From positions 11,327 to 75,326 of IMG/VR virus record IMGVR_UViG_3300037418_001301: a stretch of 64,000 bases of DNA; one strand, written 5' to 3'. Below are positions 25,969-47,848 of the stretch, piece by piece (the stretch's first letter is position 1; each line of letters starts with the position of its first letter). The translations under genes and the position numbers were made by a program. This DNA comes from a virus (taxonomy: Duplodnaviria; Caudoviricetes). Under the pieces are notes generated by a model. The model ran no database searches and was not told where the DNA came from. It was given only the letters and a program-made list of their open reading frames with translations.

Positions 25969-26352
25969 ATGTTCAAACTGAACTACGAGTGCGGCGATGA
26001 TGGCGGCAACGAATACGGCCGCATGGAAGTCGAGACGGCCAAATGGGCGGGCGAGATGTTGCACCGCCATTACCCCGGCTATCCGTGGTTTGTCGAAGTC
26101 CGCGGCGACAAGTACAACGCCGTGATCCAGTTGCAGATCAGAGGCATCATGCCGCCTGACCGCTGGTATGTGGTGAAGTTCCGCGATGTCCTGACCGATC
26201 CCGGCGGCAGGAGAACCATCCTCAAAGGCGCTGGAGAGCTTCTGGAGCGCTACAACATCCCCCGCTCCGGCTTCACTACCGACCACTGGCGCGCCGCGCT
26301 GGAGCGCTTCCCCATCGGTAACGGACGAGGTCACCTTGAACCCCTCAAATAA
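25969..26352 (+). CDS. conserved hypothetical protein upstream of the portal
   Basis: LHRHYPGYPW..., GELLERYNIPR. Confidence 0.65.
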   Translation: MFKLNYECGDDGGNEYGRMEVETAKWAGEMLHRHYPGYPWFVEVRGDKYNAVIQLQIRGIMPPDRWYVVKFRDVLTDPGGRRTILKGAGELLERYNIPRSGFTTDHWRAALERFPIGNGRGHLEPLK

Positions 26353-28666
26353 CCGCGTTCCAGGCGAGGATTTCACACGCCAGAGCGACAGCACGCCCAC
26401 CGATGACAAGCAGTGGATCGACCTGTTCAAGAACGCGAAGAAGTCGGCCGAGGATCACCAGACTTCAAAACTGCAGGCGGCATGGTCGCGGAACTATCGG
26501 GCATTTGCAAACCGGCATTTCAACGGCTCGAAATATGATACCTATCGCTACCGCTCGCGCTCGAAACTGTTCAAGCCCAAGACCAGGGCAGCTGTGCGCA
26601 AGAACGATGCCACCGCAGCGGCTTCCATGTTCTCGACAGAGGATGTGGTGTCCATCACGCCAGAGCGCGCCAGCGACAAGCTGCAGATGTCCATGGCGAG
26701 GTTCCTGCACGAGGACCTGAACTATCGCCTTGACCGATCCAACAAATGGGCCGGCCCGAATTGGTTCCTCACCGCCATCGGCGCAAGGCAGGATACTCAA
26801 CTCACCGGCATATGCGTTTCAAAGCAATACTGGGAGTACGAAGAGCGCGTCGTCTCTACCTATGTCGATGTTCAGACACAGACCATGGCGCTTGACGAAA
26901 CCGGCATGCCGATCATCGACATGGCCACTGGCCAGCCGGTGATGACGACAAGTGTTGAACAGGGTATTCAGGATACGGTCGACATCGTCCGCGATCGGCC
27001 GATGATCACGCTCATTCCACCAGAACATGCTCTGATCGACAGAACAGGCGACTGGCGCGATCCGATCCAAGAGGGCGGGTTTTTTATCGCCGCCATGCCA
27101 GCGCGCATTGACGATGTTGAATACATCGTTGCGCAGCAGGCGACCCGCAACGTCATGGGTGGTGGGAAGTGGCGGGACGACATCGATCTTGCCAAGCTTC
27201 GCCAGGCCAAGGCGCAGAAGCAGGACAATGCTGCATCTGTCAGGCGTGCCCGTGGCGATGGCATCGATCCCTATGACAGCGCGTTTCAAGGTAAGGACAA
27301 CGAAACCGTCTGGCTGTATGAAGTCTTCTACCGCAAGGACGGCGAGGACTGGCATTTCTGGATGTTGGGCGACAACATCCTCTTGAGCGATCCGCGACCA
27401 ACGATCGAGAGTTATCCAGAGCAGTTCGGCGACAGGCCATATGTCCGCGGTCTCGGCGCCCTTGAGGCCCACAAGACGCACCCCATGGCGCCGGTCGAAA
27501 GCTGGCAGCCGCTGCAAATGGAGATCAACGACACCACCAATCTTGCACTTGATGCGATGAAGATGTCGATCTCGCCCATTACCAAGATCCTGAAAGGTAG
27601 GGGCGTCGATCTCAAGCAGGTCCAGAACCGCGGCCCGGATGCGGCAATCCTCGTACAGTCCATGGATGATGTCGCCTTCGACCGGGCGCCATCACCTGAT
27701 GGCAACTCGCAGATGGCCGTCAACATCATGTCAAACGACATGGACGAGCTTGCTGGCGTCTTTGCTCAAGGCTCTGTCCAATCCAATCGAATGCTCAATG
27801 AGACCGTCGGCGGGATGCAGCTGCTTTCCGCCTCTGCCGGCGCTCTGACGGAATTCGATCTCAGGGTTTGGGTTGAGACCTGGGTTGAGCCCGTGCTTTC
27901 CCAGGTCGTCAAACTCATCAAACATTACGAATCCGATGAAGTGGTGATCTCCGTTGCTGGCGACCGCGCCGGACTGATCGAAAATCTGGTAGCGGGCCAA
28001 GGCAGCAGCAAGAAGCCGCTCGACCCGCAGGGGCAGCAGCAGGACGCCGAAGAGGCGCAGAACCCGTTTGAACCGCCGATCACGATCCACGACGCCCTGA
28101 GCAATCTCGACAAGGCCCAAGTCGCGGTCAAGGTCAATGTCGGCATCGGTGCGCTCGACACTACACAGCGCATGCAGAAATTCATGGGCGGCGTCAATAT
28201 CACCAAGGACTTGGCCCCGCTGCTTCAGGAGCAGGGCATCCAGCCCAATGGCGCAGCCCTCCTGCAGGAAGCATGGGGCCTCTGCGGCTATAAGGATGGT
28301 GACAGGTTCTTTACCGTTGCACCGCCGAAGCAGGACGATGGCACGCCACCTGAAGCAGCCCAGTTGGAGATGCTCAAGCAGAAGGGCACCATGAGCAAGG
28401 CCCAGCTTGACGCCGATACGAAACTGCAGATCGAGCATATCAAGGCCGACGTCGAAGCGCAGAAGCTTTCTCTGCAAGAGCGTGAATTCGCCTATCAGCA
28501 GATGATCACGCAAATGAGCATTAACCAGCAACAGCAGACACAGAACCTGGACTACATCATGCGACTGCTGGAGAGCGTCGTGCCAGGACATCCGGCCCCT
28601 CCGCGGCAGATTGTGCAGCAGCCTTTACAGACTGCGCAGGTTACACAGTTCCCGCAGGCGCGATAG
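26336..28666 (+). CDS. portal protein
   Basis: 776 aa between TerL and scaffold; LNETVGGMQLL; Gln-rich helical C-terminus typical of podovirus portals. Confidence 0.85.
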   Translation: MNPSNNRVPGEDFTRQSDSTPTDDKQWIDLFKNAKKSAEDHQTSKLQAAWSRNYRAFANRHFNGSKYDTYRYRSRSKLFKPKTRAAVRKNDATAAASMFSTEDVVSITPERASDKLQMSMARFLHEDLNYRLDRSNKWAGPNWFLTAIGARQDTQLTGICVSKQYWEYEERVVSTYVDVQTQTMALDETGMPIIDMATGQPVMTTSVEQGIQDTVDIVRDRPMITLIPPEHALIDRTGDWRDPIQEGGFFIAAMPARIDDVEYIVAQQATRNVMGGGKWRDDIDLAKLRQAKAQKQDNAASVRRARGDGIDPYDSAFQGKDNETVWLYEVFYRKDGEDWHFWMLGDNILLSDPRPTIESYPEQFGDRPYVRGLGALEAHKTHPMAPVESWQPLQMEINDTTNLALDAMKMSISPITKILKGRGVDLKQVQNRGPDAAILVQSMDDVAFDRAPSPDGNSQMAVNIMSNDMDELAGVFAQGSVQSNRMLNETVGGMQLLSASAGALTEFDLRVWVETWVEPVLSQVVKLIKHYESDEVVISVAGDRAGLIENLVAGQGSSKKPLDPQGQQQDAEEAQNPFEPPITIHDALSNLDKAQVAVKVNVGIGALDTTQRMQKFMGGVNITKDLAPLLQEQGIQPNGAALLQEAWGLCGYKDGDRFFTVAPPKQDDGTPPEAAQLEMLKQKGTMSKAQLDADTKLQIEHIKADVEAQKLSLQEREFAYQQMITQMSINQQQQTQNLDYIMRLLESVVPGHPAPPRQIVQQPLQTAQVTQFPQAR

Positions 28667-30377: not shown

Positions 30378-32686
30378 ATGGCCGGACAACTTTGGTCAGT
30401 CAACACCCAGGGCGGTTATCTCTATTCCGATAACCTCTCTGACCACCTCCGCTTCGAACTGCAGCCGCGGACCAAGCTCCGCAATCTCGCCGACGCCTCC
30501 GACAAGGCAATCGGCCTGCACAAGGGCAACACCTTCCGCTGGGATCGGTTCTCCAAGCTCAACAAGCGCGGCGGCCCGATCGATGAGCAGCAGAGCATGC
30601 CGGAAACAAACTTCACCATCGGCCAGGCAAGCCTGACCATCGGTGAATTCGGTTATAGATTAGCCGCTTGATTTGGATTGGTAGTACCTTCGAAAGGTAA
30701 CCGCCTTCGTGCCATATGTATCTGTGGCGCGATGGCACTTTATGCAAAGCGTTCTCAGATTGCTCGGATTCATCCCCAAAGATGGCTCCGAGGAAGTTGG
30801 GAGAATATGATCAACGTGCAGAATTATGCGAGACCCACGCCCTTCGTGGTTACGGTCCCCGCATAGTTGGCAGGTGTAGTTATCGCGTTTTAGAATTTCG
30901 AGGCGCAGCTGGCGATATTCGCTGGTGTCTCGGAACCCTCTGACGCCGCCACACCAATTGCCGTGATCCTTTCCAGTCGGGAAATCCCTAGAATACTCCT
31001 TCTTGGTTTTTCCTCTATTCCAAGCTACCTGACCTTTCTTTGACCGAAGCCATTTGGTTCGAAGAACTGGGTCAGAGGCAAGCCTCTCATTGACGTGTGA
31101 CCAGTCGCAATAGGCTTCATGGCCTTTGCGAAATCCCATGCGTTCAAGCGATGGATGGTCTCCTTTCTTCATCCCTCTGTTCCAGCCCGCAACGGTTTGG
31201 GTCTTTCGGGTTTTGGGATGGTGACCAACCTTATATTCGCCAATGATCAGGCCGCCGCCTTCAGACCTTGGACGATACACTGGGAATGGATAGAACGTTT
31301 CACCGCATCCGCATTTGCAGATAACAGCGGTTCGTTCTCTTTGCGCTTTGCTTACGCCCAAGTTAGTTCCTTTCGATGAGTAAATTCCGAATCTAGAAAA
31401 CGGGGTGAATTGCTGGAAAGCCCAACCGCTGAGAGGCGAGGGTAATCAGCAGCCAAGCCGCATATGTAAGCCGAAAGGCCTAGGGATGCGGAAGGTTCAA
31501 CGACTAGGCTTTGACGAAAGAATAAGAAGCCCACGAGCGCCCTGCGCCACACCATTGGCGATGATATAGTCTGAGCTACCGCGAAATCGGTAGAAGCGAG
31601 AGTTTAAACTACACTCGCGATAACACAAACTGAATTCTGTACCGTACACCGGACTCCTCGAGAACCTCGGGGAAATCGATGTCAAGGACATCATCGACCA
31701 GACCCTCCGCGACGACGCACGTCAAACGCTGGATCGTCTCGTCGGTTACCAGATGTTCCAGACGCCGCTTCGTGTGGCGCCGACATCCGGCACATCGACA
31801 ACCGCTGTCACGTTGACCACCAACAGCGCGACCGCAACCACCAACAACGTCGAACTCGGCACTGGCCACATCAAGGCCATTTCCGATATCATGAAAGATC
31901 GTAACGTGCCCGCGTATGATGGGGACGACTACGTTGCGGTCACTCATGCCACGACGATGCGCACTTTCAAGAACAGCCTGGAGACCATTCACCAGTACAG
32001 CGAGACTGGTATCCAGCTGATCTTCAAGGGCGAAGTAGGCCGCTACGAATCGATCCGCTGGATCGAGCAGAACGAAATCCCGAAGGGTCACGCCAATGAC
32101 GCGGCGTTCAACCTGACCTCCGGTTCCGCCAACTACGTCTATGACGCCGTTGCCGACGACTGGAACAACGGGAAGTCCTCTTGGGCTCTGTTCATGGGCT
32201 CGGACACCGTTCTGGAAGCGCCGGCCATCCCTGAGGAAATCCGCGCAAAGTTGCCCGGCGACTACGGTCGCGACAAGGGCATCGCTTGGTTGAACTGAAG
32301 AGGTATAGCCAAGCCTAAACTCCGTGAACTGACTGGAAACCCCTGAGAGCACAGAACGCCACAGCGTAGCTTGGAAAGGCAAGCGCGATGGCTTGAAAAG
32401 TTCTGTGATTGGGCAATCAGCAGCCAAGCCCCGAGAACCGGGGAAGGTTCAACGACTAACATGTAGGGCCAAGCGGCCCGAAGTGCGGAGCGCCCCTTAC
32501 CCAAGGGGACGAAGATATAGTCTCGTCCCATAGGAAACTATGGGCAGCAATTGCCAGATGCGTTTGGCAAGAGCGGCACGGTTTTAGCGAAACCGTGTGA
32601 AGATTTCCGATTACCTCGGCGGTGCCGGCCTGACCCACCAGGACGCCACCAACGCGCGTGTCATTTTGTGGGACAGTGCTGCCTGA
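30378..32686 (+). CDS. N4-gp56-like major capsid protein split by two group I introns; exons 30378-30653, 31633-32290, 32610-32686 (336 aa)
   Basis: Spliced junctions read TIGEFG|NSVPYTG and GIAWY|YLGG...WDSAA*; exon lengths 276+658+77 = 1011 nt = 337 codons including the stop. Confidence 0.9.
30654..31632 (+). mobile_element. group I intron 1 (979 nt) with an HNH ORF in loop L2
   Basis: 5' exon ends in U paired with G (cggt/gccg, P1); terminal G 31632; P10 tatagatt pairs with the 3' exon; P3 cggggtg/cgccctg; core motifs gaattgctggaaag, aatcagcagcc, ttcaacgacta, gatatagtct. Confidence 0.92.
30660..31361 (-). CDS. intron-borne HNH homing endonuclease, antisense to the intron
   Basis: TTG start with AAAGGA RBS; CKCGCG Zn-ribbon; NUMOD3-like AWNRG repeats; CQLC...HVDHI...NLRTLCIKCH. 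Confidence 0.88.
   Translation of the reverse strand: MGVSKAQRERTAVICKCGCGETFYPFPVYRPRSEGGGLIIGEYKVGHHPKTRKTQTVAGWNRGMKKGDHPSLERMGFRKGHEAYCDWSHVNERLASDPVLRTKWLRSKKGQVAWNRGKTKKEYSRDFPTGKDHGNWCGGVRGFRDTSEYRQLRLEILKRDNYTCQLCGDRNHEGRGSRIILHVDHILPTSSEPSLGMNPSNLRTLCIKCHRATDTYGTKAVTFRRYYQSKSSG
32291..32609 (+). mobile_element. group I intron 2 (319 nt, no ORF)
   Basis: P1 gcttggt/gccaagc with U-G; P10 gaggta/tacctc; P3 ctccgtg/tgcggag; aatcagcagcc, ttcaacgacta, aagatatagtct; P9 cccatag-gaaa-ctatggg; terminal G. Confidence 0.93.
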
Positions 32687-32746
32687 TCCGGCGGGGCGGG
32701 TTAGCGCCCGCCCTTTCCATTTCTTCAAATCGAAAGGACATTGGAA

Positions 32747-38863: not shown

Positions 38864-39666
38864 TTGATACCAGCGCGCTTTCTGCGCTTCTCTCCGGCTA
38901 TAACAGCCAGACGCCGGCCATTGCTCCGCCCACTGTGGCGCCGACAGCGACCACAAATCCGTTTGCCAAGTTCGCAGGCTTGTTCAATGGCGATACCAAC
39001 TTGGGCGATTACGCTCAAAAGGTCGGCATGGGCCTGTCCAACATGAGCAGCACGGGTGGCGATCCATATCTTGCCTTTGCGCAAGGATTTGGCGGCACTG
39101 CGAAGTTCACCACGGCAGAACAGGCAGCTGCGGCTGCAGCAAAGCAAAAAGAGATCGACAACGCCATTGCTGCGAACAAATTGGCGATGGATCAGAACCA
39201 GTTCGACGCTCGACTAGGGCAGGATCAATCGCAGTTCAATCAGCGGATGGGGCAGGATCAGAGCCAATTCGACACTCGCCAGACACAGCAGGCATCGGAA
39301 TCGGATCGTGACTATGCCCTGAGGCAAGCCGCAGACAAGCGCCAGCAGATGCTTGCCGATCAAGAAGTCAAGAAGTCCGCAGCCGAGATCGAGCGCATGG
39401 CGCGCGGCAATGGGATCACGGTTGATCAACAGCTTCAGATCGAGCGCATCGCGCAGGCTGCGGCTGAGAACATCGTTGACCCGGAAGAGCGCAAGAAGAC
39501 CGTTGATGCAGAGCGTCAGCGCCTGACGGACCAATTCAAAACCGGCGATACCAGTCTCAGCAACGGGCCTGGTGTTTCCGCGCAGGAACAGCAGCCGATG
39601 ACAGCAACTGGCCCGAATGGCGAAAAGCTCGTTCTCAAGAACGGGCAGTGGGTACCGCTCCAATAA
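38860..39666 (+). CDS. putative ejection protein
   Basis: Helical; DQ(S/N)QF repeats; ends GPNGEKLVLKNGQWVP. Confidence 0.7.
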   Translation: MIDTSALSALLSGYNSQTPAIAPPTVAPTATTNPFAKFAGLFNGDTNLGDYAQKVGMGLSNMSSTGGDPYLAFAQGFGGTAKFTTAEQAAAAAAKQKEIDNAIAANKLAMDQNQFDARLGQDQSQFNQRMGQDQSQFDTRQTQQASESDRDYALRQAADKRQQMLADQEVKKSAAEIERMARGNGITVDQQLQIERIAQAAAENIVDPEERKKTVDAERQRLTDQFKTGDTSLSNGPGVSAQEQQPMTATGPNGEKLVLKNGQWVPLQ

Positions 39667-39667
39667 C

Positions 39668-42600
39668 ATGACAGATCAAAGCTTGAACACGGTCGGCGCT
39701 ACTCCGACCGATCTCCCGCCGTTGCCTGAAGGGTTCGCGCTCGACGTGCGCCCTGCTGCGCAGCCGGTAAAGGAGACGGTGAAGGATACGTTCAGCGTGC
39801 CGTCGCTGCCGGATGGATTCAAGCTCGACCAGCCGTCCGCTTCGCCTGTTGGTGATTTCAAGGGCGTTGTCGAGCGTGGCAACATCGACCTCACCAAGCG
39901 TCCCGTTGTAAAGAACGACGATGGTACGATCAGCACCGTCCGTTCCATGTCGTTCGAGGAAAACGGCAAGGAAATCCTCGTTCCGACCGTGAGCGATGAT
40001 GGCAAAATCCTCACCAATGATGAGGCGATCAACCAATACCACAAGACGGGCAAGCATCTTGGCGTCTTCGACAATGCAGATGATGCCACGGCCTACGCAC
40101 AGGCTCTGCATGATGCGCAGGACGCGCACTACAGTGCCGCAAATCCAAAGCCTGTGAATAACGCCCCGGTCGAACAGCAGATGGAGGACTTCGTCAAGAA
40201 GCAGCGCAAGGCTGGCACGCTTGGGACGACCGATAGCCTAGACAAGAACACCGTCAATTTCGCGAAAGGATTGGGCGAAAACATCGTCAAGCTGGAAGGC
40301 TCGGCAGTTCGCGGCATGTCGTTGTTGCCTGGAAATGACCCGGTTGATGATTTTATCTATTGGCTCACAGGCAAGGAAAAGCCTGCCAATTATCCAACGC
40401 CAGAACGGGTGAACAAAGCCACCCAAGAAGTGGCGAAGCAGATGGAGAATGTCGATTTCGGGTTTGATCCCGGCGACACATGGGAGGACGTGAAAAAGGC
40501 CCCAGCCTCAAAATTCATTCCGTGGGCACTGAAGAACGGCTTGCTATCCGCTCCTGATATGGCTGCCATGATGGTTTCATTCCCTGGTTATGCGGCGGTA
40601 AGGGCGGGATCATTGGCCCAACAGCGCGCGCAAAATGACCAGCGCGAGAATGCGACCGTTGGGGATATGCTTGTTGCCCTACCTGCATCGACAGCATCAG
40701 CTCTGCTTGATCGCATCGGTGCCAAGGGAATGTTTGGCATTGATGAAGCCGCAGTCCAAAGCATGAAGCAACTGCTGAAGGAAGGCGGAAAAGCAGCGAC
40801 GAAAGAGGGAACGACCGAAGCTGCGCAGCAAGTTATTGAAGATGTTGCCACGGACGCTGGCACAAAGAAGGGCTTTGACCCGAAACGGACGGCCGAGAAT
40901 GCCTTGGCTTCGTTCGTTGGCGGCTCGGTGTTTGGCGGTGTTACTCGTGGTGTTGAAGGCGCAACGGAACTCAACGCGCATGCCAAGACCGGCAAGGTAG
41001 GTGCCTCCGATCTACCCCCACTCCCAGAGGGCTTCACCCTCGATCCTACAATTCAGAAAACCGACCGTTTGCCTCAAGAAGGCAAGCAGGGCGAAACGGT
41101 TGAGACGTCCGTCCTCCCCGGCCAGGCTCCCGTAACGCGAGACGGCAGCGAGGAGAAGGTTTCGCCTCCCGAATCCTTGCTGCCGTCCATCTCTCCTGAG
41201 GAAAGGGCTATTCTCCGCCGCACTTCCATCCCAGACGAAGATATCGATGCGATGTCGCGGCCGGAGATTGAGCAAAAGGTTGCCGAGGCCCGCGCCGCCA
41301 ATATCAAAGTCAACCCGGCGATGATCAACAAGGCGGCTCAATACAGCCCGCCAGAAGCGGTCACGCCTGCGGACGCCGCACAGCCGCCATTGATCGCAGA
41401 AGCCACTCCTGAACGTCCTGTGGCTGAAAGCGTGCCCATCCCGGAAGCGCGGCCGGTTTTGTCTCCCGAGGATGAGGCGGCACTTCAGGATGCGACGAAA
41501 CAATCCGTGGCCGAAGACCGGCAAGCACAGATCGACCGTGCGGTAAATCCCGAAGTTCAGCAGCAACTTGCAAAAACCGTTCAAGACCAACTTGAGCAGG
41601 ATCGCAATCAGGCCGCTGATCAAGCGCTGGCTTATGCCGAGCCCGATCTTTCGAAGGCCGTCCAGCAGTCGGTTGATGAGGATTTGAAAGGCGATGGAAC
41701 ACGGCAGTCTCCTGTTGTCGTCCAGCAACCGGCCCATATCGATGTCGCTGCTCAGCAGGTCAATACCGAGCCTAGCGATGCCCAAAGAGAGGCAAACAAT
41801 TACAAGCACGGTCACATCAAGATTTCTGGGATCGACATAACGCTTGAGAACCCGAAAGGTTCTTTGCGATCTGGCGTCTCCCCGAAAGGCGAACGCTGGC
41901 AAGTCGAAATGCCAGCCCATTATGGGTATGCAAAGGGCTCTGTGGGACGAGATGGCGATCAGGTAGATACCTATATCGGCGATAACCCGCAGTCCAAGCG
42001 AGTCTATGTCATCGACCAGAAGGATTTGAACACTCGCAGGTTTGATGAGCACAAGGCGGTGCTTGGCGTCAATTCCGTCACTGAGGCGCGTGATCTCTAT
42101 GCGCGTGGCTTCTCCGATGGCATGGGTGCAGACCGCATCGGCGGCATTACCCCGATGACCATTTCCGAATTCAGGAAATGGCTGGCATCGGATGAAACCA
42201 CCAAGCCGCTCGCCATGGGCAAGCCGAAGGTCCGCACCAACGAAGAAGGCTTCCCGATCGACATCAATGGCAACGTCAAGAAGCCCGACAGCCTTATTGA
42301 ATTTCTCGCCCGCAAAGGTGGCGTCCGCGAGGATCATGGCGAACTCTCCGTTCTTGGCCTTCGTGACCGCAAGAGCGGGTTTGTCGTCGGCGCTGGACCA
42401 CTGATCCGCCGTAACGGCATGACAGTGGACAAGGCGCGTGAGGCCGCTGCCGAGGCCGGCTACCTGCCCATGGTGTCTTCACTCAAGGATTTCTACGATG
42501 CGCTGGATCAGGACGCCCGGTCAGGTCGACAGGTTTTTTCGCAGTATGACGATGACCACGCGGCTCGCTGGCGTGAAGCGCAAGGCGGAGAAGCAAGAAA

Positions 42601-45600
42601 AGCAGAAGAAGACGCCTCCCGTAGCGAAGCCTACGACCGCCTGAAAGCAGACGGTTTCCCGGTTGACGAAGGCGCGGACTACGTCGATCGTGTCGCCGCA
42701 CACATGGCCAATGGTCAAACCTACGAAGATGCGGTAGAGTTGGCATACCAGAACATCGGTGCGGAACAGCCAGAAGTCGCCGATATCCCGTTCTTCGGAG
42801 AAGACGTAAATGAAACTGTCGCCGGAACAGCACCTGTCGATCGTGCGCCAAGTCGAGCAGAAGGCGAACGCGACCAACGATCCATCGATTCAAGCTCAAT
42901 TGAAGCGGATCGCCAAACTGGGCAGGTTCGTGGCGAAGGTGGGCCGGAAGTATCGGGCAGCCGAGGCGAGCAAGACGGCGGACGCGGCGATCAGCAAGGC
43001 ACGGCTCAGCGCGAAAAGTCTCAGCCGCAAGAGCCTGTAGCCGAGCGCGGCGCTCTTCCGTCCGGATTCACGACATCGATGGGTTCGACGTATACCGTTC
43101 ATGAGGACGGCACAACTACCCGCGACAAGGCCGCTCGAAGCACTCCCGGCCATGAAGGCGACAGCGGGCTAAAGGCTCGAACCGAAAAGACCATTTACAC
43201 GGATGCGAATGCTGGCGCACTGAGCGCGGCGGGCCTGACGTTTGCCCCCGGCAGCAAGGGCGCGCGTGTAGTCATCAGGAATGGCAAGGCATCGCTCGCT
43301 ACATGGAACGTGAAGGAAAACCGTTGGGGCGTTTCCGAGGGTAGCCGTGATATCCAGTTCTTCAATGAGCCTGCGGTTGGCCGCTACCCGTTGGAACTCT
43401 GGAAGTCTGCGGATGATGTTCCCGGTTACGAAGCCTATGCGAAGATGCATGCCGGCAACAAGATCACAGAGATTTCCAGTGGCAAGGAGCCCGTAAGCGA
43501 AGCCGGAGCAGACAACAAGCAGCAACTCGTCATTCCCGGAGCAGAGCGAGCCTCTGACGCGACTATGGCTCAACGCGGGGCAGATGCCGCCCTCAAGCCA
43601 AAGGTCGCGCAGAAGGAGCCCGCTGGGCTGTTTAGCGATGAGCGGAACCAGGGCGACTTGCTGGATTTGGCGAAGAAGCCAGCTCAGCGCGAGGAAGCTA
43701 AGGTTGAGCCCGCAGAGCCGGAAGCCAAAGCCGCCACGTCGGAAGAGCCAAAGAAGCTTGTCCCGCCGTCAGTCGTCTATCACGGCACGTCAACAGGCGG
43801 ATTCGATGCCTTCGACACATACCAGGGCAAATACGGCCTATTCGGTAGCGGTGGCTATTTCACCGAAGATCCAAACATCGCGCTCGAATACACCCGCAAG
43901 GGCAGGGGCGAGAAGCCGACGGTCTATTCCGCCAAACTCAATGTCAAAAACGCGTTGGACATGGACGCCAAGGCCGATGTTGCGGCTTGGGAGAAAGCGT
44001 TCCCAGACCATTTCGACCCGGATAACCTTCCCGAGAATGCCACCAACGAGCAGGCCTATCGCGAAGTCGAAGAAATGCTCTCGCAGGATATGATCCCTGA
44101 CTACGAGGGCGCCGAGACCATGCAGGACGGCGTTCAGAGCATGGGTTATGACGCCATCACGCATATCGGTGGTGGTCGTCACAAGGCTTCCAAAGGTACG
44201 AAGCACCGTGTTTGGATCGTGTTTGATCCTGAACAGGTCACCAATTTCAAGGAAGAGGAACGGCATTATTCGGCAAATCCAGCCGGCTGGGATACCGCTG
44301 GCGAAATGGACGCCAAGCCGCTGCTCTCGAAAGCCGATCAGCGGGAACTCGTAGATATCGTCCGCACCACGGCTGGCCTCGACCCCGAATTTGTCGATAC
44401 GATCAAAATCCCCGAAGGTGGCGCAAAGGGTTGGGGCAATCTAAATTCTTCAACGGCAGCCGGCGCTTACAGCCCGATGCGCGATATCGTCACGCTTGCG
44501 CTCGACAGCGCGACCAAAAAATCCGCCCAACACGAATCCTTCCATCGCCTTCAAAACCTGTTCCTCACCGAAAAAGAGCGCAGGGTTCTGAAAGCAGAAG
44601 AGCCTCGCCTGCGGAAGATGATTGCCGACAGCACTACCTACGGGCAAGATGTTGCCGCCAAGATGAGCCGCAAGGAAGTCGAAGCGGAAGCCTACGCCAT
44701 GTGGGCAACAGCGAAGAAAAAGCAGGAATCCGCGCCGAAAATCCATATCGCGCTGCGCAAAGCGTGGAACAGCATTGCCACCATGCTTGAGCGCGTCCGC
44801 AATTACCTCAATGGGCGTGGTTTCCAGACTTTGGAGGACGTGTTTGGCAAGGCGAAAACGGGTGAGATTGCCAAGCGCCCAAAGCGCCAAAGCCAGAGCA
44901 CTGATACGCAATATGCGATCACGGACGAGCGCGGCCCTGTTGCCGAACCGGATACCGGCACCGTCACTCCAGGCGCTGCCATCGGCACCCGTATCAACGA
45001 TTATCTCAACGCCGCCAGCAAGGCGCTTGCCTCAAAGATCAAATCCAAGGGCAGCCGTTTTGATCGCTCAACAGCAGAAGACGGAGAAACCACCGCCCAG
45101 CTCGCGCACCGCAAGATCGTGGACTATCTCTCCCCGGTAAAGCAGATGCAGGAGAAGGTTGGCGGCAACCTCAATGATCTGGCAAACGCCTATCAGACGG
45201 CTCGGCTGGCGGAAGGAACGATCCGCCACGAAATCCACCAGATCGATGACAAGTACGTAACGCCTGCCGTTGATGCACTGGCAGCCGTAGGAGCATCACT
45301 GGAGGACTTGCACAAGTACATGTACGCCATGCACGTCCCGGAGCGTAACCGTGTCGTAGGGCTGCGCAATGGTGAGGAAGGCAAGCAGATCGAATTTTCG
45401 GAAGTTGATGGAACGTGGAAGATCGGTAGCGGGCCGGTAAGTGACGGGAAACGGGAGCAGTTATTCCGTGCAGCTACTGACCCAACTGTCCGCGGCGCGT
45501 CTGGTATGTCCACCAATGAGGCAAAGGACATCATCCGCGAACTCTCCCAAGATCGTGAAAAGTTCATGGGCATCCGCCGTGCGGCCTCGCATATCCGCGC

Positions 45601-47848
45601 CATGCTCGACAACTCGCTTGAGACGCAGCTCAAGAACGGCCTAATCAACAAGGAAACCTATGACCGCCTGACAAGCCAATGGCAGAACTATGTTCCGCTC
45701 CGCGCCGAAAGCGATGAGGACGGCGTAGGCGGCTCGTTCCCGTCCAAGTCTCGCGGCTTCGATGTCCGCGGCGACGAATTCAAGGGCGCAACGGGAAGAT
45801 TCACGCCGGCTGACAACGTTGTGGTCTACTCCATCAACAACGCCGAGCAGAGCGTTATTCGTGGCGAAAAGAACAAGGCTGCCACCGCAGCGCTGCGCTT
45901 CATCAACCAGTTCGATCCAAAGGGCGAAAACATCGCACAGGTCTATTGGTCAGATCAGCCGGAGCAGTTGGGCGATATCACCAAGGCCCCGGCCGTTTAT
46001 CGCCGGGTGATCGGTTCGGATGGCAAGGTTACTCAGCGCAAGGTCAATGACTTCCAGATGCGTGACGATGTCTTGGCCGCAAAGGTGGGCGGAAAGACGT
46101 ACTACATGCGCTTTGCCGACCCCAAAGTGGGCTTGGCGCTCAAGAAGATGACGTTCTCGGAATTGGGTGTTGCGCTCAAACTGGTAAAGACCGTCTCCAA
46201 CTGGCAATCGCTTATCAACACCAGGGCGAATCCGGCTTTCATCCCTCTCAACCTAATCCGCGACGTTCAGACCGGCGCTACTCTGGCCCTTTCAAAGGGC
46301 TTCAGCACGGGCGAGATAGCCAAGACCGTCGGCAATATCCCGAATGCTTGGGGCGCTCTCTGGCGTCATGCTCGTGGCAAAGAAGGCAATGGCGTCTGGG
46401 ATACCCGCTTGCAGGACTTCATGTCAGCCGGCGGCAAGATTTCCTTTGATCAATACAATTCGATCGAAGACACCCTCAAGAAATTGCAAAAGGACGTGGC
46501 ACGGCGCACGGGCGGCAGCAAGCCGAAAGAGGCATGGAATGCCGTCGTCAAGCTGGTTACGGATCTGAACGACACGATCGAGAACGGCATGCGCCTGGCC
46601 GTCTTCAGTGCCAGCCGAGCACGGGGAGATACGTCTAAACAGGCAGCATTCCTCGCTCGTGACCTCACCGTCGATTTCCAGAAGAAGGGCGAAATCGCGC
46701 CGAGCATGAATGCGCTCTACACCTTCTTCAATGCATCGGTGCAGGGCAATTATAACTTCGCCAAAGGCTTGGTCCGGTCACGCAAGGTCCGCGCCGCGAT
46801 GATGGGCCTGATCGTTGCCGGCTATGCGCAGCATCTCTGGAACCTCGCCATGGCCGGCGATGACGACGATGGCGAGAATGCCTACAAGAAAATGCTCCGC
46901 AATGAGCCGTGGAAGTTCGAACGGCAGATGGTGTTCTTCCTGCCTGGTCGAAAGGATTACATCACGATCCCACTCGGTTTCGGGCTCAACGCCTTCTGGC
47001 ATCTCGGGGTAGAGGGCGGCGCGGTGACTTCTGGAGTAAAGGGTTTCCTGCCTGCTGCGCTCGATAGTACCCGCGTTGCCTTCGATGCATTCAATCCGCT
47101 CGGCTCTGGTGGATGGGTTGGCATGGTGCTGCCATCGATCATCGACCCGATCTGGGAACTTGGCACCAACCAGGATTTCACGGGGCGACCGATCTATCCG
47201 AGCGAAAACCAGTTCGACCCGGCACCGCCCCCGAAAAGCGAGCAGGCGTTCAAATCTACCGCCCCAGCCTTCAAGGTTGCAGCGAAAACGCTCAACAGCC
47301 TTACGGGCGGCAACGACAAGGAACCAGGCGCGGTCGATGTCTACCCGGACTCGCTCGAATATCTCTGGGGCTGGTTTTCTGGCGGCTTGGGCCGGTTTGT
47401 CTCTCAGTCCGGAGAAACCGCGCAACGCGCTGTCAATCTGGAGTTCGAGCCCAAAAAGACGCCATTCATCCGCTCTTTCTATGGCGAGACGGACGACCAG
47501 ACCCATCGCGCCGAATACTACAACGAGCGCGAACGGGTCCAATACGCCGCTGGCAAGATGAAAGAATATGAGGATGCCGGGAACAAGGAAGACACGGCTA
47601 ATTTCTTGGCAAGCCACAAGCAGGACCTTGATTCCGCCTATGCATTCGAACAGGCCGAAAAGCAGCGCAAAAAGATCAACAAAGAGCGCCGCCAGCTCGA
47701 AAAGTCGAAAATGCCGCAGGATAAGATCGACAACGAGTTAGATCGCCTGAACGATCTTGAACTTGAAATCATGGACGACGCCCGCAAGGAGTATTTCAAG
47801 GCTCAGCAGAAAGCCGCAGCGAAGGATCAATTGCAACAAGCGCAGTGA
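39668..47848 (+). CDS. giant polyvalent internal virion protein (PPase-like, ART-like, zincin-like and LPD38-like domains)
   Basis: 2726 aa from ATG 39668; ANNYKHGH...YGYAKGSVGRDGDQVDTYIG; YHGTS...GGYFTED; HESFH; DLTVDFQKKG...ALYTFFNASVQG. Confidence 0.85.
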   Translation: MTDQSLNTVGATPTDLPPLPEGFALDVRPAAQPVKETVKDTFSVPSLPDGFKLDQPSASPVGDFKGVVERGNIDLTKRPVVKNDDGTISTVRSMSFEENGKEILVPTVSDDGKILTNDEAINQYHKTGKHLGVFDNADDATAYAQALHDAQDAHYSAANPKPVNNAPVEQQMEDFVKKQRKAGTLGTTDSLDKNTVNFAKGLGENIVKLEGSAVRGMSLLPGNDPVDDFIYWLTGKEKPANYPTPERVNKATQEVAKQMENVDFGFDPGDTWEDVKKAPASKFIPWALKNGLLSAPDMAAMMVSFPGYAAVRAGSLAQQRAQNDQRENATVGDMLVALPASTASALLDRIGAKGMFGIDEAAVQSMKQLLKEGGKAATKEGTTEAAQQVIEDVATDAGTKKGFDPKRTAENALASFVGGSVFGGVTRGVEGATELNAHAKTGKVGASDLPPLPEGFTLDPTIQKTDRLPQEGKQGETVETSVLPGQAPVTRDGSEEKVSPPESLLPSISPEERAILRRTSIPDEDIDAMSRPEIEQKVAEARAANIKVNPAMINKAAQYSPPEAVTPADAAQPPLIAEATPERPVAESVPIPEARPVLSPEDEAALQDATKQSVAEDRQAQIDRAVNPEVQQQLAKTVQDQLEQDRNQAADQALAYAEPDLSKAVQQSVDEDLKGDGTRQSPVVVQQPAHIDVAAQQVNTEPSDAQREANNYKHGHIKISGIDITLENPKGSLRSGVSPKGERWQVEMPAHYGYAKGSVGRDGDQVDTYIGDNPQSKRVYVIDQKDLNTRRFDEHKAVLGVNSVTEARDLYARGFSDGMGADRIGGITPMTISEFRKWLASDETTKPLAMGKPKVRTNEEGFPIDINGNVKKPDSLIEFLARKGGVREDHGELSVLGLRDRKSGFVVGAGPLIRRNGMTVDKAREAAAEAGYLPMVSSLKDFYDALDQDARSGRQVFSQYDDDHAARWREAQGGEARKAEEDASRSEAYDRLKADGFPVDEGADYVDRVAAHMANGQTYEDAVELAYQNIGAEQPEVADIPFFGEDVNETVAGTAPVDRAPSRAEGERDQRSIDSSSIEADRQTGQVRGEGGPEVSGSRGEQDGGRGDQQGTAQREKSQPQEPVAERGALPSGFTTSMGSTYTVHEDGTTTRDKAARSTPGHEGDSGLKARTEKTIYTDANAGALSAAGLTFAPGSKGARVVIRNGKASLATWNVKENRWGVSEGSRDIQFFNEPAVGRYPLELWKSADDVPGYEAYAKMHAGNKITEISSGKEPVSEAGADNKQQLVIPGAERASDATMAQRGADAALKPKVAQKEPAGLFSDERNQGDLLDLAKKPAQREEAKVEPAEPEAKAATSEEPKKLVPPSVVYHGTSTGGFDAFDTYQGKYGLFGSGGYFTEDPNIALEYTRKGRGEKPTVYSAKLNVKNALDMDAKADVAAWEKAFPDHFDPDNLPENATNEQAYREVEEMLSQDMIPDYEGAETMQDGVQSMGYDAITHIGGGRHKASKGTKHRVWIVFDPEQVTNFKEEERHYSANPAGWDTAGEMDAKPLLSKADQRELVDIVRTTAGLDPEFVDTIKIPEGGAKGWGNLNSSTAAGAYSPMRDIVTLALDSATKKSAQHESFHRLQNLFLTEKERRVLKAEEPRLRKMIADSTTYGQDVAAKMSRKEVEAEAYAMWATAKKKQESAPKIHIALRKAWNSIATMLERVRNYLNGRGFQTLEDVFGKAKTGEIAKRPKRQSQSTDTQYAITDERGPVAEPDTGTVTPGAAIGTRINDYLNAASKALASKIKSKGSRFDRSTAEDGETTAQLAHRKIVDYLSPVKQMQEKVGGNLNDLANAYQTARLAEGTIRHEIHQIDDKYVTPAVDALAAVGASLEDLHKYMYAMHVPERNRVVGLRNGEEGKQIEFSEVDGTWKIGSGPVSDGKREQLFRAATDPTVRGASGMSTNEAKDIIRELSQDREKFMGIRRAASHIRAMLDNSLETQLKNGLINKETYDRLTSQWQNYVPLRAESDEDGVGGSFPSKSRGFDVRGDEFKGATGRFTPADNVVVYSINNAEQSVIRGEKNKAATAALRFINQFDPKGENIAQVYWSDQPEQLGDITKAPAVYRRVIGSDGKVTQRKVNDFQMRDDVLAAKVGGKTYYMRFADPKVGLALKKMTFSELGVALKLVKTVSNWQSLINTRANPAFIPLNLIRDVQTGATLALSKGFSTGEIAKTVGNIPNAWGALWRHARGKEGNGVWDTRLQDFMSAGGKISFDQYNSIEDTLKKLQKDVARRTGGSKPKEAWNAVVKLVTDLNDTIENGMRLAVFSASRARGDTSKQAAFLARDLTVDFQKKGEIAPSMNALYTFFNASVQGNYNFAKGLVRSRKVRAAMMGLIVAGYAQHLWNLAMAGDDDDGENAYKKMLRNEPWKFERQMVFFLPGRKDYITIPLGFGLNAFWHLGVEGGAVTSGVKGFLPAALDSTRVAFDAFNPLGSGGWVGMVLPSIIDPIWELGTNQDFTGRPIYPSENQFDPAPPPKSEQAFKSTAPAFKVAAKTLNSLTGGNDKEPGAVDVYPDSLEYLWGWFSGGLGRFVSQSGETAQRAVNLEFEPKKTPFIRSFYGETDDQTHRAEYYNERERVQYAAGKMKEYEDAGNKEDTANFLASHKQDLDSAYAFEQAEKQRKKINKERRQLEKSKMPQDKIDNELDRLNDLELEIMDDARKEYFKAQQKAAAKDQLQQAQ

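Follow-up and report, generated by a model that had tools for sequence, protein, structure and literature searches.

Two predicted self-splicing group I introns, one of them with an antisense HNH gene, interrupt the major capsid gene of a soil podophage

How does a phage build its head when its only major capsid gene appears in the genome as separate pieces? This question is raised by a 64,000-nt stretch of viral DNA (hereafter the window), which covers bases 11327-75326 of the 75,326-bp IMG/VR virus record IMGVR_UViG_3300037418_001301 (CheckV completeness 100%). In the interval of the capsid gene, the list of open reading frames (ORFs) holds only two fragments on the strand of the gene, at 30378-30671 (97 aa) and 31753-32298 (181 aa). 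An earlier note on this DNA claimed that removal of 30654-31632 and 32291-32609 restores a continuous protein of 336 aa, and our analysis confirms this. Exon 1 (30378-30653; 92 codons, ending in GAA TTC GGT), exon 2 (31633-32290; 658 nt, ending in GCT TGG T) and exon 3 (32610-32686; 77 nt including the stop codon, encoding 25 residues), all on the plus strand, join to 1011 nt, which is 336 codons and a stop. We infer from the sequence that the sole capsid gene is very probably split by two mobile group I introns and that its transcript must self-splice twice to yield the 336-aa capsid protein.

The spliced protein was aligned with 15 uninterrupted homologues (330-337 aa, mostly 336 aa; 60-88% identity over exon 2). 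All are colinear with it, and the alignment runs through both junctions without a gap. Exon 2 used as a query returned more than 1000 relatives, the closest of which are mostly exactly 336 aa long. Junction 1 lies between the codons for Gly92 and Asn93 in the motif GEFG/NSVPYTG (the slash marks the junction) and junction 2 follows the first base of the Tyr312 codon in the motif GIAW(Y)YLGG; in the alignment with the 15 homologues, both motifs are among the most conserved of the capsid protein. Since moving either boundary by a single base introduces residues absent from all homologues, the intron boundaries are unique. The predicted ligated junctions are ...GAATTCGGT/AATTCTGTA and ...GCTTGGT/ATTACCTC, identical to those predicted before.

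Both intervening segments lie on the plus strand and match the Rfam model RF00028 over its full length and above its gathering score of 50 bits, which bears out the earlier assignment to group I. Intron 1 (30654-31632; 979 nt) is matched at 31354-31593 (65.8 bits, E = 1.8e-14) and the ORF-less intron 2 (32291-32609; 319 nt) at 32262-32544 (76.2 bits, E = 1.4e-17); these are the only two matches of the model in the whole 75,326-bp genome. The U-G pair at the 5' splice site and the terminal G, both noticed previously, are present in each intron. P1 of intron 1 has 6 bp (30650-30655 with 30661-30666), among them the U30653-G30663 pair, and the intron ends in G31632. P1 of intron 2 has 7 bp (32284-32290 with 32308-32314), U32290 pairs with G32308 and the last base is G32609. 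In intron 1, P2 (30670-30677 with 31386-31393) encloses a loop, L2, of 708 nt, so that P2 and L2 span 30670-31393, and is followed by the ribozyme core (31394-31632) with P3 (31401-31407 with 31538-31544), P4-P6, P7 (31500-31506 with 31567-31572, with one bulged base), a P7.1-type hairpin, P8, P9 and P9.1. Intron 2 has no P2 and a long P5 extension; its P7 is formed by 32452-32458 with 32518-32523. The two introns have a common core architecture, and the P3 and P7 elements that the earlier note had seen in both were found again: P3 and P7 of intron 1 were recovered and covary, and P7 of intron 2 was located.

An alignment of seven intron 1 cores (alignment A4: the window and the related loci L001, L006, L008, L002, L036 and L037; P7 pseudoknot added by hand) comprises 59 pairs, with 99% of cells paired. 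Both sides have changed in 19 pairs, compared to 11.2 +/- 1.8 in shuffled alignments (none of 500 reached 19) and 2-5 in slid controls. The covarying helices include P3, P6, P7, the P7.1-type hairpin, P8, P9 and P9.1, and in P7 the pair beyond the bulge alternates between A-U and G-C. P2 covaries around the ORF that it encloses, with GATTTGGA pairing with TCCGAATC in the window, GATCGGG with CCCGATC in L001 and ATCAGTT with AACTGAT in L002. For intron 2, comparison of the window with L008 shows covariation in P8 (CCCCUU with AAGGGG against CCCGC with GCGGG) and in P9, where an A-U pair is replaced by G-C. In the definition of Michel and Westhof, introns of subgroup IA have the extra helices P7.1/P7.2 between P7 and the 3' strand of P3. 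Intron 1 has one covarying hairpin at this place (columns 120-144 of A4) and intron 2 has a hairpin of GGGCC with GGCCC. Both are predicted to be related, IA-type group I introns of an IA2-like kind.

Each of the two rounds of splicing on the late pre-mRNA would begin with an attack of guanosine at the U-G pair of P1 and end with ligation of the exons after the terminal G. The frame of unspliced exon 1 enters intron 1 and stops at 30669-30671, five codons past the 5' splice site, and intron 2 has an in-frame stop at 32296-32298, two codons past its 5' splice site. From what is known of group I introns, such early stops may keep ribosomes out of the ribozyme cores. An intein, translational bypass or a frameshift is ruled out, as each gap contains a full ribozyme core and capsid-frame stops and has precise group I boundaries. 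Core-less mini-introns need not be invoked either, since no gap is left in the spliced protein. The introns could also be dead for splicing, with the capsid assembled from separately translated pieces or the genome being a dead variant. The split, unspliced NrdA of phage Aeh1 has been reported as a precedent, and two points weigh against our reading. Firstly, the P10 helix that the earlier note gave for both introns stands in intron 2 (6 bp, 32612-32617 with 32300-32305) and is weak in intron 1 (4 bp including one G-U, with a one-base offset). Secondly, none of the listed public runs with the capsid sequence is an RNA run. Still, both ribozyme cores are intact and score above gathering, and their pairing is kept by compensatory changes across lineages. 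No start codon opens exon 2, and exon 3 accounts for only 25 residues. The same interrupted architecture occurs on many independent contigs, and the genome itself is complete by CheckV. It therefore seems extremely improbable that the introns are splicing-dead.

The identity of the protein is clear from exon 2, which matches phrog_1357 'major head protein' (E = 2.4e-10); several of its relatives are named 'N4-gp56 family major capsid protein' by the Joint Genome Institute (JGI) and UniRef. TIGR04387, the NCBIfam equivalog model for this family, has a curated cut-off of 60 bits, which the uninterrupted homologue P0003 (88% identical to the window capsid over exon 2) does not reach with 53.9 bits (E = 1.6e-14); exon 2 alone scores 31.2 bits. 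Since these scores are under the cut-off, the capsid is a divergent relative and not a certified member of the family. The earlier description as 'N4-gp56-like' is a fair label in this looser sense, while strict membership of TIGR04387 does not follow. Pfam searches with each single exon gave no match and a PDB sequence search with P0003 gave nothing at E <= 0.1. A blastn search against the phage collection found no related capsid gene, and its matches concern only the conserved core of intron 2 in unrelated phages. In these matches (H1-H17; Pseudomonas phages PAP02, LP14, YH6, VL1 and others), the group I core is 70-79% identical to that of intron 2. The phages concerned are N4-like phages of Pseudomonas along with several jumbo or other phages, and the core regions are mostly annotated as 'none'; the label Intron_gpI is found in Pa_WF01 only.

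What fills most of intron 1 is an antisense HNH gene, which the earlier note overlooked. The ORF (30660-31361, minus strand) encodes 233 aa and starts with TTG (31359-31361), preceded by AAGGA; 25 nt separate this start from the 3' strand of P2, and at the other end the stop codon (30660-30662) falls in the P1 loop and guide-sequence region. In L001, about 21 nt replace 30683-31386 of the window, and thus the ORF cassette sits in the P2 loop; L001, L006 and L008 have a hairpin of about 30 nt where the window has the ORF. The protein matches PF01844 above the cut-off (E = 2.7e-7) and HNH families in PHROG, best phrog_5956 (E = 1.7e-16), and the copy in L002 has an additional weak match to NUMOD3. 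It is a predicted homing endonuclease in a peripheral loop of a mobile intron, and intron 1 would be a composite of a ribozyme and an HNH gene placed antisense in L2. Because of this orientation, transcription of the gene requires a promoter of its own on the strand opposite to that of the capsid gene.

The HNH gene is under selection. Intact copies are present in L002 and L036 (71-75% protein identity) and, for the three lineages, the pairwise ratio of nonsynonymous to synonymous substitution rates (dN/dS) is 0.11-0.13 at a near-saturated dS of 1.5-2.0, which indicates strong purifying selection on a gene and not a chance ORF. There are about 90 HNH relatives at >=42% identity, and all those with genomic context examined are antisense, follow capsid exon 1 and occupy the same site. 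Even three distant relatives (HNH proteins 53-56% and capsids 46-52% identical) directly follow an exon 1 ORF of about 97 aa at a G/N(S/K)(V/C)PYTG site and adjoin an RF00028 core of 63-82 bits. For the window copy itself, several findings count against a working endonuclease gene. It starts with TTG where its relatives in L002 and L036 have ATG, and the public gene call (P0123) covers 170 aa only, from an internal Met, so that this copy may be weakly expressed. A crude scan of the minus strand found no sigma-70-like promoter for the gene, the host being probably an alphaproteobacterium, and the total number of sites in the scan was not above that in shuffles. The window copy may be on its way to decay.

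The strong purifying selection, together with an orientation and position that are kept across capsids of 46-100% identity, could imply that the HNH protein has another role instead of, or besides, that of a homing endonuclease. It might for instance cut competing phages, or its antisense transcript, which would match about 700 nt of the pre-mRNA as a complement, P1 and the guide sequence among them, might modulate the capsid pre-mRNA. We consider such a role unlikely. The ORF is dispensable, as the same capsid is encoded in L001, L006, L007 and L008 around an intron 1 that lacks it, and its placement in a peripheral loop and its pattern of presence and absence are those of classical intron homing endonuclease genes. 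Moreover, antisense endonuclease genes in introns are already known from LittleE and from Didymium (I-DirII), both discussed below.

Whether the introns serve the phage can be judged from the alleles among its relatives, for which the spliced protein was searched with tblastn against 30 related IMG/VR capsid loci and loci fetched by exact protein look-up. The window combines a 979-nt intron 1 with the antisense HNH gene and a 319-nt, ORF-less intron 2. L006 and L007 (capsid 100% identical) have an ORF-less intron 1 of 292 nt and no intron 2, and L001 (the same as L009; capsid 99%) has both introns without ORFs. L008 (capsid 99-100%) has an ORF-less intron 1 and an intron 2 of about 800 nt with a sense-strand HNH_3 ORF of 184 aa. 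At greater distance, L002 and L003 (capsid 71-77%) have intron 1 with the antisense HNH gene and no intron 2, and both introns are absent from L010 (capsid 73%) and 25 more distant loci (47-54%). Empty site 2 of L006 reads GCC TGG TAC TAC CTT, which is the predicted ligation product except for synonymous changes.

The same variation is present in soil, as seen in contigs from four soil or rhizosphere DNA runs. One run yields a contig that joins 32290 to 32612 with 'AC' in between, the exact empty site of intron 2, and also holds an intron-bearing contig. In two runs (X1 and X4), a hairpin of 32-33 nt replaces 30673-31390 of intron 1, and loose contig ends at 32559 and 32565 match the L008-type ORF. 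The IMG/VR loci and these contigs together indicate that three states of intron 2 and two of intron 1 coexist in one habitat. The HNH_3 ORF of L008 (L008:3892-4446, sense strand; PF13392, E = 2e-11) lies in the P9.1 loop. It begins with an ATG within the 5' strand of P9, overlaps P9.1 and P9.2 and stops 9 nt short of the 3' splice site. In the window, intron 2 has ATA at the position of this start codon and 32565-32600 are the last 36 nt of that ORF. On these sequence grounds, intron 2 of the window is an ORF-less derivative of the HNH_3-carrying form.

The earlier note saw in the two splicing steps a possible regulatory checkpoint. On this view, the introns would be retained as a gate, with two GTP- and Mg-dependent splicing steps that set when or how much capsid protein is made. 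In favour of it, no late protein is more abundant than the capsid, whose production requires the removal of both introns; furthermore, splicing of T4 introns is reported to depend on translation and growth state, according to the title of a reference in PMC8541194. A needed regulator would be fixed and not polymorphic, but among capsids of 99-100% identity intron 2 may be missing, or either intron may occur with or without its ORF, even in one sample, and IMG/VR capsids at <=73% identity mostly lack both introns. The checkpoint thus finds no support and we regard a gate as very unlikely. Since the introns vary in presence and ORF content among nearly identical capsids and within samples, we propose that they are selfish homing elements.

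Homing would proceed by the endonucleases cutting or nicking intron-less capsid alleles during co-infection, after which repair would copy the intron, with some flanking exon sequence, into the recipient. Junction 2 bears a trace of this kind. Alleles without intron 2 differ from the window at positions 918, 930, 936, 942, 948 and 963 of the coding sequence (CDS), around the junction at CDS 934, whereas the intron-2-bearing L001 and L008 show no difference from the window over CDS 910-965. Such clustering of exon differences at junction 2 in intron-less alleles only is the pattern expected of co-conversion during homing. The change at CDS 930 (the -5 base) would also break a pair of P1.

Related capsid genes are interrupted at other sites as well. 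L038, with a capsid 47-62% identical to that of the window, carries a related group I intron (L038:2090-3085; RF00028, 54.1 bits) with its 5' splice site positioned 8 nt downstream from site 1; its boundaries are AAT TCG AT/T CCC, where a U precedes the splice site and the intron ends in G. The adjacent but distinct sites suggest retargeting within one conserved motif. L039 (L039:2735-2967) and likewise L040 have an ORF-less intron of about 235 nt after Asp42 (GAG GAT/GGC ACG), which scores below gathering (RF00028, 28.3 bits, E = 2.7e-5) and resembles intron 1 in its P7, P7.1 and P3 region; scans at the gathering threshold would miss introns of this type. In L042 (L042:1587-1878) and L043 (L043:1254-1965, minus strand), capsid genes with the site 1 intron and antisense HNH gene have further interruptions. 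The second intron of L042 is near residue 212, beside a sense-strand HNH_3 ORF (RF00028, 57.6 bits), while L043 is interrupted near residues 183-187 with no RF00028 match at gathering. With introns at >=4 further positions in related capsid genes, the capsid gene of this phage group is an intron hot spot.

It is possible, though doubtful, that intron 1 and its antisense HNH gene are an old co-adapted unit for the capsid motif G/NSVPYTG, that the antisense orientation is itself functional, and that this family with >=6 intron sites is a system in which to watch the homing cycle. If so, the orientation would uncouple expression of the endonuclease from late transcription of the capsid gene, and incoming intron-less genomes could be cut early. 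By its complementarity to P1 and the guide sequence, the antisense transcript could in addition damp splicing or translation of the capsid pre-mRNA. A capsid family interrupted at >=6 sites would then offer a natural setting in which to follow homing through its complete cycle in soil.

Introns in phage capsid genes are not new, and the novelty implied by the earlier note was overstated. The temperate mycobacteriophage LittleE has a probable group I intron in its major capsid gene, with splicing shown by reverse transcription PCR and N-terminal protein sequencing (Pope et al., 2013, PLoS One 8:e69273; PMC3706429). As in the window, the exon ends in U and the intron in G, and an endonuclease ORF lies on the bottom strand, transcribed against the capsid gene; this endonuclease is LAGLIDADG-like in the text and HNH in the figure legend of that paper (PMC3706429). 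Unlike the window, LittleE has one intron and not two, and it is a siphovirus of a high-GC Gram-positive host. In the window, splicing is inferred from sequence, the intron type is set by Rfam and covariation, and the ORF is placed in L2. Lactococcal phage Tuc2009 is listed with a group I intron in its major head protein gene (Tourasse and Kolsto, 2008, PMC2504315; cited in PMC3706429), as such a further capsid gene intron, but its capsid family and host are unrelated to those of the window.

A phage gene with more than one intron is not new either, as three group I introns are reported for orf142 of Staphylococcus phage Twort (Landthaler and Shub, 1999). The introns of Twort orf142, T4 td, nrdB and nrdD and the SPO1 DNA polymerase gene are IA-type, as is predicted for those of the window, with several introns in one phage gene, carry genes for HNH or other homing endonucleases in peripheral loops, and have ORF-bearing and ORF-less forms among relatives; they differ in their host genes, which are mostly for nucleotide metabolism or replication and not for capsids. 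Their endonuclease ORFs are on the sense strand, unlike that of intron 1. An antisense homing endonuclease gene with its own promoter is known for I-DirII in a ribosomal DNA (rDNA) intron of Didymium iridis (Edgell et al., 2011, PMC3073962). It shares with the HNH gene of the window the antisense orientation in a group I intron, but this is eukaryotic nuclear rDNA and not a phage, the promoter is one for RNA polymerase II, the ORF contains a spliceosomal intron and no protein-coding gene is interrupted. Dense intron loads with metatranscriptome support were described for Jug jumbo phages, with terL, nrdD and DNA polymerase genes named (PMC12880540). The text of a 2025 group I intron database paper mentions neither phage nor capsid and has no bearing either way. 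The window adds a well-documented further example to the capsid gene introns of Tuc2009 and LittleE, and what sets it apart most is the antisense HNH gene conserved in L2, for which LittleE is a published precedent.

The genome is that of a complete 75-kb soil or rhizosphere podophage with an SU10-type portal, an N4-gp56-like capsid and a single major capsid gene; its host is probably an alphaproteobacterium. In the structural module, the portal gene (26336-28666; PF23899) is followed by a gene for a scaffold-like protein of 436 aa, the capsid gene and then small head and adaptor genes. A consensus scan, the only evidence for it, places a terminator-like hairpin at 32693-32714 (plus strand), just 3' of the capsid gene. 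Further downstream, an ORF of 2743 aa (39617-47848) encodes a polyvalent protein with InPase (PF18823) and LPD38 (PF18857) domains. A true N4-like phage was ruled out: since this ORF is not a virion RNA polymerase, the phage is not N4-like in the strict sense, despite the name of its capsid family.

The earlier expectation that automated annotation would miss the arrangement was correct, as gene callers yield products of 97, 235, 214 and 242 aa from the interrupted capsid genes. The capsid of this phage and its relatives is thus auto-annotated as unrelated fragments (97, 181-235 and 242 aa), and capsid-based classification, host-range and proteome work on this group of soil phages errs unless the introns are modelled. 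The locus leaves what is known about group I introns unchanged. It does present, in one habitat, a compact natural series of empty site, ORF-less intron and intron with endonuclease, and is a convenient place to study the intron homing cycle and the expression of an antisense intron gene in bacteria.

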